Source: Acinetobacter phage SH-Ab 15599
Direction: 5' to 3' (one strand)
Sequence record: MH517022.1
Length of the DNA: 64,000 nucleotides
The notes under the pieces were generated by a model. It saw only the letters and a program-made list of their open reading frames with translations. It was not told where the DNA came from and made no database searches. Position numbers and translations under genes: made by a program. How positions within the stretch are numbered: position 1 is the first letter of the stretch; each line of letters starts with the position of its first letter. This document shows positions 3,047-7,515 of this stretch, piece after piece.

Positions 3047-3400
3047 ATGCTCCTAATACATTATCCAAGTTGGGATTCGGCGTTTGTTTTGTATGTTTCT
3101 TCATTGCTTATAAGTTGCAAAAAAGAAACCAACAGTGAGTTTATGTTTATGTTAGAACTATCAAATGAAGATATAAAGTTAGTGGAACAGGCTGGGTTTG
3201 AAGTTAGAATTGCAGCTGAACTCAATTACTATGAAGGTGGTATTGAAACTTTACCCAGATTGAACAGCGCCAGAGTTGAAGTGTTTATTAGATCAGCTCA
3301 ATCTAACGGGGTTACTGGTACTATTCATCCAGTTGATATTGTAATCCCTACAGATAAGATTGTTGCTCTAATACGTTTGGCCAGAGGTCAACCAGTATAA
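3047..3400 (+). CDS. hypothetical protein; an alternative start at 3142 (MFMLELS...) would give 86 aa
   Basis: ORF is present but neither start has a strong RBS. Confidence 0.4.
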   Translation: MLLIHYPSWDSAFVLYVSSLLISCKKETNSEFMFMLELSNEDIKLVEQAGFEVRIAAELNYYEGGIETLPRLNSARVEVFIRSAQSNGVTGTIHPVDIVIPTDKIVALIRLARGQPV

Positions 3401-3468
3401 CCTTCAAATTCAAGAATGACTCCTTTATGGGGTCATTTTTATTTCTTAAAATAAATTAAAAATATTTA

Positions 3469-3507
3469 TTTGATTTTAAGGGTTATTTTCGTTAATGCTA
3501 TATAATA
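3469..3507 (+). promoter_or_regulatory. candidate sigma70-like promoter upstream of tRNA-Arg (TTGATT ... TATAAT, non-optimal spacing)
   Basis: TATAAT at 3502-3507 lies about 35 nt upstream of the tRNA 5' end, in an AT-rich spacer. Confidence 0.25.
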
Positions 3508-3541
3508 GCTCTCATGAAACAAGTATGAAGATATTTGTAAT

Positions 3542-3618
3542 GCGCTTGTAGCTCAGTTGGATAGAGCATCCGCCTTCTAAGCGGATGGTCACAGGTTCGA
3601 GTCCTGTCAGGCGCGCCA
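3542..3618 (+). tRNA. tRNA-Arg (anticodon TCT)
   Basis: Hand-folded cloverleaf: acceptor GCGCTTG/CAGGCGC, D-arm GCTC-AGTTGGATA-GAGC, anticodon stem TCCGC/GCGGA with loop CTTCTAA, T-arm ACAGG-TTCGAGT-CCTGT, encoded CCA. Confidence 0.85.
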
Positions 3619-3636
3619 ATTTATGAGGTTGTTGTC

Positions 3637-4089
3637 GTGGTTAAGATTACTAACAATGTTGTTATTGACAGTAATGGTTGTTGGATTTGGAACAAATCCT
3701 TTTCTAGTAACGGATATGGTCAGTTGACTGTAGATAAGCGTTACTGGTTGGCTCACCGTTACTCTTACACGATGTCTAAGGGAGAGATTCCAGCCGACAA
3801 CGTCGTAAGACACAAGTGTCATAACAAGAAGTGTTGTAATCCAGAACACCTTGAAGTTGGTACTCAAGCTGAGAACTGGCAAGACTCTAAAGAAGTTCAT
3901 TTGAACAATGCCAAGAACAGACGCAAGCAATGGTCTATCAATGGTAAGTCTTTTGATACTCTTATGGAGGCTCAACGTTCTTCAGGTGTACCAGCTAAGA
4001 CAATAGCAAAATATACCGTAAGAGGCGTATTTGATTTAGAGCGTTACAGACAAAGTTGCGCTAGAATAAAACGCGAACCAAAGATTTGA
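3637..4089 (+). CDS. HNH homing endonuclease (freestanding, inside the tRNA cluster)
   Basis: HNH motif ...HKCHNKKCCNPEHLEVGTQAENWQD plus upstream CWIWNK...GYGQ, as in phage HNH family members such as I-HmuI. Start lies 19 nt after the tRNA-Arg CCA. Confidence 0.8.
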   Translation: MVKITNNVVIDSNGCWIWNKSFSSNGYGQLTVDKRYWLAHRYSYTMSKGEIPADNVVRHKCHNKKCCNPEHLEVGTQAENWQDSKEVHLNNAKNRRKQWSINGKSFDTLMEAQRSSGVPAKTIAKYTVRGVFDLERYRQSCARIKREPKI

Positions 4090-4327
4090 TTCGCACGGTG
4101 AGTGAACTTGTAAACGGTTGAAGCCCCAGATGTGCGGTGGATACGTGAGCTGAAATTGTCTTGAGTAAGCTCTGAGGGACTAGACAAACCTCTCAGTCAG
4201 AAGTTCATTCAACCATGCGAAAGCAATAGACAGAGAACCGATTTGTTCCTTCTCTGGTGCGCGATTAGCATTGACGCGGTGGATGTCTATAAAGCCACAT
4301 CACTTTCTTATGTATGTAAGAGGTGAT

Positions 4328-4403
4328 TCCCTAGTAGCTCAGTTGGTAGAGCGACGGACTGTTAATCCGTGGGTCGCTGGTTCGAGTCCAGCCTAGGGAG
4401 CCA
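4328..4403 (+). tRNA. tRNA-Asn (anticodon GTT)
   Basis: Cloverleaf: acceptor TCCCTAG/CTAGGGA, D-arm GCTC-AGTTGGTA-GAGC, anticodon stem ACGGA/TCCGT with loop CTGTTAA, T-arm GCTGG-TTCGAGT-CCAGC, discriminator G and CCA. Confidence 0.85.
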
Positions 4404-4948
4404 GATTCAAGACAGTAGCCCGAGAGGGTTATGAGGTGGCTGAGAGAGTGAGCACAAATTGTAAGTACGCATGGTTTGCGAACCACTTGACTTCTAGGAA
4501 GATAGCTAGATGACTGCTGGAAAGACAGCAACCAGATTCTGACTGAATCCATATCGCGGTTGCAGGAAATACCACATGAAATGGTGGCGCGAGACACTAA
4601 CAGTAGACTAATCAGTTGTAAATTCTATTCCCTGAAAGGCTGTCTAATAGGGTATAAACTAACAGCAAAGATGTTTGGATAGGTCAAATAGCAGGTACGT
4701 CTATGCTTCCTGCTTAAAACTCAATAGGATAGGTTATGACAAACAACGGGTTTTGTTAGGATGATAACCTTGTAACTGCTCCGGCAAGTGCAGAACAATC
4801 AAAGAATTTAAGAATAAGGCTGTTGAAGGGCAGCCACCTCTAGCTATCTTTCAGGGTAGTCATGAGAATGATAGTGTAAAGGTCTTTGCTGAAGATTCAC
4901 CTTTACATGAAAGGTCTCAGGAGCCGAGAGTTAAACAAACCCTTCATT

Positions 4949-5022
4949 CCCTGGCTGGTGTAACAGGTAGCACAATGATCTTTCAGATCATGGTTTAGGT
5001 TCGAATCCTAGGCTCGGGGCCA
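4949..5022 (+). tRNA. tRNA-like gene, possibly tRNA-Glu (TTC); imperfect acceptor stem, short variable loop
   Basis: D-arm GTGT-AACAGGTA-GCAC, anticodon stem ATGAT/ATCAT with loop CTTTCAG, T-arm TTAGG-TTCGAAT-CCTAG, then GCTCGGG-G-CCA. Acceptor 5' CCCTGGC pairs with one T-C mismatch and one GU. Confidence 0.4.
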
Positions 5023-5240
5023 TTTCGAAAGCCAATTGTAAAGCACTTATCAAATACAAAGATCGCAACTTTGGGTGGATGAGGAAGGTGCTTCAAACTC
5101 CGAAAGGATACCTCGCCAAATCACAGTTGGCTTTCGAAATTGCTGCTAATAACAAATAAAATAATAATTTGAAATACTCACTCCTCTCTAAACTACATTA
5201 TACTTCCTTCATACAAACTATCTCTCAATGGAGAAATGTA

Positions 5241-5576
5241 ATGAAGCTGTGTAAAATCAATAATGCCTTTGAACAAGGCGAAGAAAACAACTACCTCTCT
5301 CAAGATGATATCAATGAATATCGTACTCACCCTGTCTTCAATGAACTGTACGAAAAGGTTATTGGGGATAAACCTCTTGCGCTCTTAGGGCCAGATGAAG
5401 ATTTTGAAGATTCAATCTTCCCTTGTGATCTCCCTTCTTTGGCTCTACGCTATAAAGATGCTTCTGTTGGTAATCTTACAATGGGCGATATCTATCACGG
5501 CGTAGTGGATGGAGTAGAGTGTTTCGGTATGCACTGGGACTATACAGGCTTGTTATTGTTCGCGGCAGGGGAATGA
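5241..5576 (+). CDS. hypothetical protein (111 aa; ATG at 5241 preferred over the upstream TTG)
   Basis: GGAGA RBS 6 nt upstream of the ATG. Confidence 0.5.
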   Translation: MKLCKINNAFEQGEENNYLSQDDINEYRTHPVFNELYEKVIGDKPLALLGPDEDFEDSIFPCDLPSLALRYKDASVGNLTMGDIYHGVVDGVECFGMHWDYTGLLLFAAGE

Positions 5577-6815: not shown

Positions 6816-7166
6816 ATGAAATACAAATTAGAAAGTGGAGAAGAAATCAGTGAGGGTCTTCTTGTGCCAGTACAATATGCAGAAGGGCCGAATGGAGGGC
6901 GTTATAATATTGACCTTGAAGCCTTTCAACACAAACGTTTCTTTGTTCTACTTAATGATAAGTTGAACGAATTACCTCTCGGAGAAGTAGTCGAGGTTAA
7001 TGGGAACGGCGTATTTGCTCCTTGGAATCGTAAAGATTTACACTTCGTTGTTCATAATACCGAGTTTGGCCCGTCCATATTCAATTCTAAGGAACTGGCA
7101 ACCAATCCGCATTTACATTTCTACATGCTCAATGATGAAGTAAATGTAGTCTTTGAGACCTTTTAA
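6816..7166 (+). CDS. hypothetical protein; paralogue A of a second tandem pair (M.KYKL..GEEI...)
   Basis: GGAG RBS. Related to the next ORF (KYKL.SGEEI / KRFFV motifs). Confidence 0.55.
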   Translation: MKYKLESGEEISEGLLVPVQYAEGPNGGRYNIDLEAFQHKRFFVLLNDKLNELPLGEVVEVNGNGVFAPWNRKDLHFVVHNTEFGPSIFNSKELATNPHLHFYMLNDEVNVVFETF

Positions 7167-7176
7167 GGGGACTGAT

Positions 7177-7515
7177 ATGTCAAAGTACAAGTTGATAACT
7201 GGCGAAGAAATTGAAATGAACAATCTCACCGAAATCTCTTACATTGGAGGTTGGAGCGGAGGCTGCTATAATTTCAAAGTCAAAGAGTCTCTAGACAAAC
7301 GGTTCTTTGTATATGTTCTGAGCATTCATACTATTATGGAGTTGCCAAAACCTAAATTAGTTGAGATGACGGGCACAGATTATGATCACGGCCATAACTA
7401 CGCTTGGAAAAGAGATGATCTACAATTCAAGATCAGTACTCAATATGGGTTTGATTCTACATTTACGTTATATGATATTGTAACTCAATTCAAGCAGAAA
7501 GTTTGGATGATGTAA
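7177..7515 (+). CDS. hypothetical protein; paralogue B (MSKYKLITGEEIE...)
   Basis: AAGGGGA RBS before the ATG at 7177. Confidence 0.55.
   Translation: MSKYKLITGEEIEMNNLTEISYIGGWSGGCYNFKVKESLDKRFFVYVLSIHTIMELPKPKLVEMTGTDYDHGHNYAWKRDDLQFKISTQYGFDSTFTLYDIVTQFKQKVWMM

Follow-up and report, generated by a model that had tools for sequence, protein, structure and literature searches.

The island of transfer RNA (tRNA) genes in Acinetobacter phage SH-Ab 15599 (sequence record MH517022.1) raises the question of what is carried by the ~0.86 kb of DNA that lies between its three tRNA genes without a credible open reading frame (ORF). A sequence-only reading of the window, the whole 64,000-nucleotide (nt) stretch analyzed here, had found an HNH endonuclease gene in the island and had offered stable small RNAs, a degenerate intron that once housed the HNH gene, or novel non-coding RNAs as explanations of the spacers. 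We describe the region as a non-coding RNA operon in which the tRNAs and several RNA modules are co-oriented; its phage is lytic, of Acinetobacter type and distantly related to phage nACB2. The probability that the segments between the tRNAs of this operon become stable small RNAs, and that one of them, termed module A, is a trans-acting binding platform, is put at about 0.6; the processing and the binding are steps that we infer from sequence.

The spacer between tRNA-Asn and tRNA-Glu is 545 nt long (4404–4948), and BLAST searches with it matched solely intergenic DNA of other Acinetobacter phages, in a piecewise manner. Module A (4432–4532 by BLAST) matched the Obolenskviruses BP10 and BUCT628, phage 3098 and a contig of the IMG/VR collection (locus L008); module B (4540–4605) matched phage phiAC-1 and L008; and module C (4690–4800) matched phages Ab1-TPeters and 3098. 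The order of the modules differs between these genomes. It is A, a hairpin, B, a gap and C in the window, tRNA-Arg, A and C in phage 3098, and B, then A followed by a terminator in L008. The alignments show the spacer to be a mosaic of at least three small RNA modules, which have been reshuffled in the tRNA and transfer-messenger RNA (tmRNA) islands of other phages.

The core of module A (4435–4487, plus strand) is built from two helices, P1 (4435–4439/4483–4487) and P2 (4468–4471/4477–4480), with AA at 4481–4482. The 5′ strand of the P1 + P2 helix is interrupted by a near-invariant bulge strand of 26–27 nt, which occupies positions 4439–4465 in the window and reads GCUGAGAGAGUGAGCACAAAYNGUNAG. 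Family membership was assigned with a covariance model, R1, of covarying P1/P2 helices around GCUGAGAGAGYGAGCACRARYNGUNAG; the window copy scores 79.1 bits (E = 1.7e-21). Pattern scans and the covariance model together identified 15 members, 14 of them distinct, with scores of 66–84 bits: the window, the three cultured Acinetobacter phages BP10, BUCT628 and 3098, six IMG/VR contigs, four metagenome contigs and one prophage of Delftia acidovorans. Several of the metagenome contigs are rich in G and C (GC-rich). Four candidates from relaxed scans (L019, L020, L022 and L023) were rejected as chance matches. In the model-fitted alignment, 97.6% of the 126 cells of P1 and P2 are paired, compared with 24–41% when the partners are slid; eight of the nine pairs have changed on both sides and none of 500 shuffles matched the observed score. 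A MAFFT alignment gave 94.9% paired cells. In the bulge strand, 21 of 27 columns are invariant across the family. No Rfam family for module A was found on the window or on the 11 module A loci that were scanned, with L013–L016, L018, L021 and L024, seven of the 15 loci, outside the scan; the scanned related loci returned tRNAs only, plus permuted tmRNAs in BUCT628 and 3098. By these comparisons module A is shown to be a conserved structured RNA that, on the scanned loci, matches no Rfam family. The literature yielded no description of the motif, and the large candidate lists of viral surveys, one of which holds 10,006 candidates, may include it. A literature match between module A and plant miR156 is a chance identity of 12 nt.

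The core is accompanied by peripheral helices whose sequence differs between members and whose complementarity is kept. Hairpin Pa (UAGCCCGAGAGGGUUA, GAGA loop; 4415–4432, plus strand, folding-energy z = −3.85) precedes it, with a hairpin likewise placed in BP10, 3098, L008 and the class I members. Hairpin Pb, UCUAG-GAAGAUAG-CUAGA (4493–4510, plus strand; alignment A7), follows it. The Pb stem covaries among the Acinetobacter-phage members (CUAG/CUAG, UUAG/CUAA, UUUAG/CUAAA and CUCG/CGAG) around a loop of the form ..AGAU.AGC.., and its class I equivalent is GCCGG-AGAUCAGCA-CCGGC, with GUCGG/CCGAC in L021. The GC-rich phages have, in addition, a long stem, P0, that surrounds all of module A. 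Locus L015 carries two tandem units (6890–7015 and 7090–7215) with near-identical long P0 stems (CCAUCACG..CGGAUUG / CAGUCCG..CGUGAUGG), the first following a GAAAGA hairpin and enclosing a different cargo and the second bearing the module A core; the pair looks like one scaffold with exchangeable inserts. At L013 (3015–3090 versus 3195–3215) an upstream CUACUACAUCAG can replace the 3′ strand of P0 as the partner of its 5′ strand, giving two mutually exclusive foldings. The window itself holds a perfect 12-nt inverted repeat, AAGAUAGCUAGA / UCUAGCUAUCUU (4499–4510 / 4839–4850), which could close a 328-nt domain containing modules B and C; chance alone would yield about 0.1 repeats of this kind, and this pairing competes with the covarying local hairpin Pb.

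Module B (4540–4605, plus strand) comprises P1 (4554–4558/4588–4592), P2 (4572–4575/4584–4587) and a conserved joiner, GUUG(C)AGGAAAUA. It is 91% identical to intergenic DNA of phiAC-1 and 89% identical to L008, where one pair shows a compensatory change from G-C to C-G (alignment A5); an exact-pattern scan returned phiAC-1 itself only. Module C (4690–4800, plus strand) contains the helices P1 (4690–4695/4709–4714), P3 (4737–4743/4752–4758) and P4 (4777–4779/4784–4786), and its homologs lie between tRNA-Arg and tRNA-Met in Ab1-TPeters and directly past module A in 3098. All 48 cells of the three helices pair and seven of 16 pairs have changed on both sides, versus 31–58% paired cells and 0–2 such pairs in slid controls. 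A candidate from the pattern scan, L012, was a chance coding match, and a degenerate-pattern scan for module C found nothing further. Modules A and C covary among phages, the comparison by which the sequence-only reading had proposed to judge this region. Between the module A core and module B stands a UGAC sequence followed by a hairpin with a GAAAGA hexaloop (4511–4530, plus strand; stem 4515–4519/4526–4530), a recurrent boundary hairpin of which at least nine different complementary stems bear the same kind of loop. The loop is GAAAGW in BP10, BUCT628 (two copies), phiAC-1, L008, L010, L015 and L024, CAAAGA in L021 and AGAGA in L018. The hairpin is placed 5′ of P0 in the GC-rich members and 3′ of Pb in the Acinetobacter phages, and in BUCT628 it stands on both sides of the tmRNA.

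Module A lies on the strand of the adjacent tRNAs in all five cases, and at six of the 15 loci a tRNA or tmRNA is no more than 300 nt away. A strict module A pattern is absent from 185,579 bacterial species genomes, and a relaxed pattern has a single match there, in a prophage immunity region near an S24 repressor and a regulator with helix-turn-helix and Arc domains (HTH+Arc). The invariant strand shows no complementarity of ~20 nt or more to E. coli genomes, ribosomal RNA and tRNA included. In phage 3098 (L007, 1386–1637, minus strand) a hypothetical protein is annotated antisense across tRNA-Arg and module A; this coding sequence (CDS) and an 88-amino acid (aa) antisense ORF of the window (minus strand, 4331–4597) are almost certainly spurious. 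An ORF of the window with a crAss001_48-related domain (252–671) lies a few kb from the RNA island, with related ORFs at L014 1955–2677 and L004 38–739. The L014 relative adjoins module A and is fused to a Tad2-like (anti-Thoeris) domain, and the relative in Ab1-TPeters is fused to a gp49/66 domain. Because of these neighbors and their fusions, a location of the islands in accessory or anti-defence regions is suggested.

The other spacer, between tRNA-Arg and tRNA-Asn, has a different history. The ORF at 3637–4089 (plus strand) encodes a free-standing homing-type endonuclease of 150 aa with an HNH_3 domain (Pfam PF13392) at residues 38–80, whose score of 48.1 bits (E = 8.9e-13) exceeds the curated cut-off of 24.8. 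It has a GTG start, with GAGG 8 nt upstream, and begins 18 nt past tRNA-Arg, so that the earlier placement of an HNH gene just 3′ of that tRNA is borne out. The protein family is very common in phages (tblastn matches in 1475 phage records); IMG/VR provided a single relative, at 39%, and a database look-up of the protein returned no record. The best match, with 46% aa identity, is in Alishewanella phage Slickus01 (L025, 2394–2947), where the gene is likewise free-standing, starts 17 nt past a tRNA-Ser and heads a cluster of 12 annotated tRNA features. The likeness to the placement of segB in phage T4, a free-standing endonuclease gene inside a tRNA island, thus stands and extends to this homolog. 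The nearest relative of the window phage is Acinetobacter phage nACB2 (Ackermannviridae), whose helicase is 67% identical; the phage, IMG/VR and gene-position collections, IMG/VR being queried via the downstream ORF, contained no close relatives. The layout in nACB2 is tRNA-Arg, 115 nt, tRNA-Asn and tRNA-Met/Ile, with neither an HNH gene nor a long spacer. The last ~70 nt 5′ of tRNA-Asn in the window, a leader running GCGCGAUUAGCAUUGACGCGG...AAAGCC (4257–4327, plus strand), partly align with the nACB2 spacer around GCG..AUUAGCAU.GAC (alignment A6). Since nACB2 has Arg-115 nt-Asn without the HNH gene, the likeliest explanation is that this gene and ~170 nt behind it (4090–4256) were inserted between tRNA-Arg and tRNA-Asn. 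The gene has the marks of a mobile insertion, being absent from the nACB2 spacer, free-standing and found at the same position in Slickus01. Because the Slickus01 homolog likewise follows closely on a tRNA and leads a tRNA cluster, the lineage would appear to home beside tRNA genes, as segB does in T4. The ORF-free segment 4090–4225 (plus strand) is lineage-specific, with a predicted imperfect closing stem of ~20 bp around three small hairpins (minimum free energy z = −2.19); no homolog was found at E ≤ 1 in 50,697 phage records, so that its structure is a prediction from the single sequence. We rejected the idea that a direct repeat, TTATGAGGT(T/G)G at 3621 and 4429, is the scar of an insertion, as ~5 repeats of this kind would arise by chance.

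The longest plus-strand ORFs in 4090–4948 encode 40–41 aa and the only longer one is the 88-aa ORF antisense to tRNA-Asn and module A, so the description of the spacers as ORF-free holds. Their locally raised GC content is real and modest (0.458 in 4090–4327 and 0.424 in 4404–4948, versus 0.39 in the window), and GNRA hairpins are present, for example CCCGAGAGGG at 4418–4427 and GCGAAAGC at 4216–4223. Folding-energy z-scores of −2.4 for spacer 1 (4090–4327) and −1.2 for spacer 2 (4404–4948) are weak evidence of structured RNA. The earlier suggestion of novel non-coding RNAs is upheld for parts of spacer 2, which have homologs with compensatory changes and no Rfam family; for spacer 1 it is the modest z-score, together with the ~70-nt leader partly common with nACB2, that hints at a structured RNA. 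Positions 4606–4689 and 4801–4948, a terminal hairpin described below and spacer 1 beyond the common leader have no detectable homologs, and their putative structure is predicted from folding energy only. The stretch 4801–4948 (plus strand) is an ORF-free leader of tRNA-Glu with local hairpins (GGCUGUUGAAGGGCAGCC; 4860–4922), a z-score of −1.15 and no homolog found.

According to the preferred reading, the whole island would be transcribed as one precursor that starts past the terminator at 3412–3440. The precursor would be cut at the three tRNAs, all of which encode CCA, by RNase P of the host and by 3′ processing. Release of the tRNAs would free the modules between them as stable small RNAs, as is the case for T4 species 1/2, and the closing stems of the modules would protect them. 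Module A would then act in trans, its invariant strand providing a docking surface for a protein or a universal RNA that is conserved in very different hosts; such a bacteria-wide target is suggested because the strand hardly varies across hosts while its surroundings vary. The HNH gene would be a selfish passenger homing next to tRNA genes. Several points weigh against this account. The transcript ends, the stability and the trans action of the modules are features that we infer. The invariance of the strand is partly a matter of ascertainment, because most members were found with patterns taken from that very strand; scans that freed 7–8 strand positions added only two true members, with 1–2 substitutions each, which mitigates the bias and does not remove it. 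Folding-energy z-scores of modules A, B and C (−0.8, +1.0 and −0.2) are unremarkable. Module B, with its single compensatory pair, is conserved mainly in sequence and its structure is weakly supported, and the covariation of module C comes from three sequences. No protein is common to the module A neighborhoods across the loci, which therefore give no hint of a partner, and nACB2 has no module A, which is therefore accessory. Having no homologs, spacer 1, 4606–4689, 4801–4948 and the terminal hairpin may be lineage-specific filler. A sigma-70 promoter scan called nothing for the island, including the candidate −10 box discussed below.

An ambitious extension of the preferred reading would have module A represent a new functional RNA class, in which tandem T-loop-like pentamers dock universal host RNA machinery, candidates being the tRNA elbow, the ribosome, RNase P and RNA polymerase; we regard this as unlikely. 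If true, phages of very different hosts could interfere with translation, transcription or the handling of tRNAs, or weaken defences that target tRNAs, and modules A, B and C would join the permuted tmRNAs in a shuffled 'RNA accessory island' toolkit. RNA polymerase is also the target if module A and the GAAAGA hairpin form a cis-acting element of processive antitermination, in the style of HK022 put or lambda nut/boxB, that renders polymerase resistant to Rho and intrinsic terminators across untranslated structured islands or early operons. The near-invariant strand would suit binding to this universally conserved enzyme, the islands as long untranslated transcripts are natural targets of Rho, and the GAAAGW loops recall the loops of lambda boxB, which are GAAAA and GAAGA. 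Module A of the Delftia prophage, moreover, lies just past the HTH+Arc regulator with three terminator-like sites before the next ORF. Yet an intrinsic terminator stands directly 3′ of module A in L008 and L021, apparently at the end of the unit, and the window copy lies 900 nt inside the island instead of close to its beginning. Model R1 finds no similarity in the HK022 put region, and no boxA-like sequence was noticed. We consider antitermination unlikely. HDV-like (hepatitis delta virus-like) and hammerhead ribozymes cut beside tRNAs in other phages, and a new small self-cleaving ribozyme that cuts the polycistronic precursor of tRNAs and non-coding RNAs would share with module A a size of ~55 nt, covarying stems around a near-invariant core and occurrence in multi-RNA transcripts beside tRNAs and tmRNA. 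No Rfam ribozyme model matches at E ≤ 10, a null that covers the known small classes (hammerhead, HDV-like, twister, pistol, hatchet and others). By hand mapping, neither the hammerhead core order (CUGANGA-stem II-GAAA) nor an HDV-like double pseudoknot fits, the latter fold requiring the invariant strand to pair with upstream sequence that is variable, and the copies in L014, L016 and L021, which resemble 5′ untranslated regions or operon ends, have no obvious need for cleavage. Self-cleavage is accordingly judged improbable. The helix with its conserved asymmetric internal loop could also be taken for a riboswitch aptamer that binds a universal metabolite or ion, as L014 and L016 carry it 45–130 nt 5′ of same-strand ORFs; those two copies have neither a terminator nor a sequestered Shine-Dalgarno sequence, no expression platform overlaps P1′, and behind most members there is no ORF to control, the next element being a tRNA, another module or a terminator. 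We give the aptamer a very slim chance.

The 27-mer might also act as DNA, for instance as a homing-endonuclease target, a recombination site or a single-strand initiation signal, or the spacers might be neutral filler. Its near-invariance across phages of very different GC content, the HNH genes near it in the window and in L011, and the frequent recombination at module borders implied by the shuffling could all be read in this way. Recognition of duplex DNA leaves unexplained that the flanking helices stay paired through double changes; the strand is always that of the adjacent tRNAs or genes, terminators follow on the same strand, and an HNH gene is nearby at only two of the 15 loci, which makes the explanation highly improbable. 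A last alternative is the degenerate intron: HNH genes are frequently found inside phage group I introns, and the GNRA hairpins and raised GC content of the spacers could be remnants of one that once carried the HNH gene. A search of 3400–5300 with Rfam 15 at E ≤ 10 and permissive filters returned tRNAs only; this null covers group I and II introns, ribozymes, tmRNA, GOLLD and ROOL RNAs and RNase P. Accordingly, the resemblance that the sequence-only reading had seen to group I P/Q and R/S elements finds no support in any intron model, and the P3-P9 core of RF00028 is not matched. The quoted P/Q-like stretch, TTGCAGGAAA, lies inside module B and the R/S-like CAGTAGACTAATC just past the BLAST-aligned end of that module, which in phiAC-1 and L008 has no HNH gene called or annotated alongside. 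All three tRNAs are intact, no interrupted or split host gene is seen, and the Slickus01 homolog also stands free after a tRNA. An intron origin is barely credible on these grounds, and the preferred reading remains that of a tRNA operon that releases small RNAs.

The tRNA genes themselves, all on the plus strand and all encoding CCA, were called by ARAGORN and Rfam in agreement, each with an anticodon and a score above the RF00005 gathering score of 29 bits; these programs find three tRNAs and no further family. The two clean tRNAs are tRNA-Arg (anticodon UCU; 3542–3618, 72.6 bits), which is 96% identical to that of nACB2, and tRNA-Asn (anticodon GUU; 4328–4403, 73.8 bits). The third, tRNA-like gene of the sequence-only reading proves to be an atypical tRNA-Glu (anticodon UUC; 4949–5022), weaker than the others at 41 bits, with a C1-G72 pair and a U4/C69 mismatch in the acceptor stem. 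The 5′ limit of the island is a hairpin resembling an intrinsic terminator, with a 12-pair stem and a T-run (3412–3440, plus strand), that ends the upstream gene. A possible promoter −10 region, TGCTATATAAT (3497–3507, plus strand), lies ~35 nt 5′ of tRNA-Arg, with TATAAT at 3502–3507 picked by eye as the candidate −10 box. The island is closed by a long hairpin (5019–5143, plus strand; inverted repeat I1) with 21-nt arms that are 90% complementary and separated by 83 nt. It abuts the 3′ end of tRNA-Glu, has a folding-energy z-score of −4.4 (5020–5145) and lacks a U-run behind it; a search of 50,697 phage records gave no homolog. Its possible roles include that of an RNase III site or of a 3′ stabilizer.

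Related islands carry further elements. Permuted two-piece tmRNA genes were identified by ARAGORN and Rfam in BUCT628 (L006, MZ593728; 1563–1867) and vB_AbaM_3098 (L007, PV081573; 2381–2698), with the predicted tags ANDNVFGAKTLAA and ANDSTFGTRALAA, respectively, and RF04321 scores of 124 and 108 bits in addition to RF01850. Both genes are unannotated in their records, the one in 3098 being covered by three small annotated CDSs. The same programs found no tmRNA, standard or permuted, in the window. A further 'module D', UUGAUCG-AAUCUGUGGGCGACACA-[variable insert]-GCAACUAUUCGCACGUUGCC-GAUCAA, is found in Obolenskvirus islands and not in the window (L001 ~3130–3250, L005 2377–2472, L006 1377–1472 and L008 minus strand ~4380–4265), and its closing stem covaries (GUUG/CAAC in L008). 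Upstream of module B in L008 (minus strand, 4640–4575) lies a 3′ half resembling that of a tRNA or tmRNA (..CUGGUUCGACUCCAG..AAUCGCCACC), uncalled by ARAGORN and Rfam, which may be a decayed acceptor piece.

An island type that combines tRNAs, a homing endonuclease and non-tRNA RNA is already known from T4, and orphan RNAs adjacent to tRNAs are known as GOLLD and ROOL; the module A family, and the shuffled RNA modules common to unrelated Acinetobacter phages, appear unclassified. Annotation of a phage tRNA cluster usually leaves everything between the tRNAs as junk or as spurious small ORFs, and here the junk contains exchangeable structured RNA modules. One of them, module A, differs by hardly a base among AT-rich Acinetobacter phages, uncultivated phages of high GC content and a prophage of Delftia. 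Conservation across phages combined with near absence from bacterial chromosomes is the pattern expected of an RNA that touches something universal in bacteria, and module A is directly testable because three cultured phages carry it. The annotation of phage 3098 calls for correction where antisense ORFs cover tRNA-Arg and module A, as do the records of BUCT628 and 3098 for the permuted tmRNAs. Should module A be just another orphan motif, what is gained is a modest addition, namely one more family model and a better view of module shuffling and HNH invasion.

Among known systems, the tRNA region of phage T4 is the nearest in layout. It contains the GIY-YIG homing endonuclease gene segB and the stable species 1/2 RNAs (RNA C and D), and like it the window has a free-standing homing endonuclease gene and non-tRNA segments that tRNA processing could release. 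The endonuclease differs, being HNH_3 and not GIY-YIG, and there is no detectable sequence relation to the T4 RNAs because the spacer returned Acinetobacter phages only; likening the window RNAs to species 1/2 is a reasonable analogy only. The P1 c4 and P4 CI RNAs, which RNase P excises from longer transcripts, are likewise small structured phage RNAs, and the Delftia copy of module A lies in an immunity region; their loops, however, covary with phage-specific targets, whereas the module A strand is near-invariant across unrelated phages, and the Rfam C4 family has no match in the window at E ≤ 10. HK022 put and lambda nut share with module A small size, occurrence in early or untranslated transcripts and a purine-rich loop (GAAAGA versus GAAAA/GAAGA in boxB), but neither sequence nor model shows a similarity to the HK022 region, and the members do not agree in where they lie with respect to promoters and terminators. 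Within module A, AGUA before P2 and (G)AA after P2 recall the bulged-G (sarcin-ricin-like) motif, which we treat as a lead. Permuted tmRNAs (RF04321, RF01850) occupy the same kind of island, 25–900 nt from module A in BUCT628 and 3098; module A is not part of them, because BP10 and others carry it without a tmRNA. GOLLD (RF01998) and ROOL (RF03087) are structured orphan RNAs, frequent neighbors of tRNA genes in phages and prophages (PMC12286853). In this they resemble the window RNAs, which differ in having no Rfam match at E ≤ 10 and, for module A, a core of only ~55 nt; nor is the 545-nt spacer one large fold, because its modules occur separately and in different orders elsewhere. Lastly, the double T-loop module that docks on the tRNA elbow is made of UGNNA/AGNNA pentamers (PMC3664808) that run head to tail, the residue two positions ahead of each loop forming a platform pair, and the module A strand contains UGAGA-G-AGUGA, two pentamers that fit these patterns, the single natural pentamer variant (AGCGA in L021) altering an N position. 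Unlike in the double T-loop, the pentamers are one nucleotide apart and in reversed order, the required platform pairs would clash with P1, and no T-box or RNase P model matches. The likeness, read from sequence, is a resemblance only, and an RNA that binds tRNA would make sense within tRNA islands.

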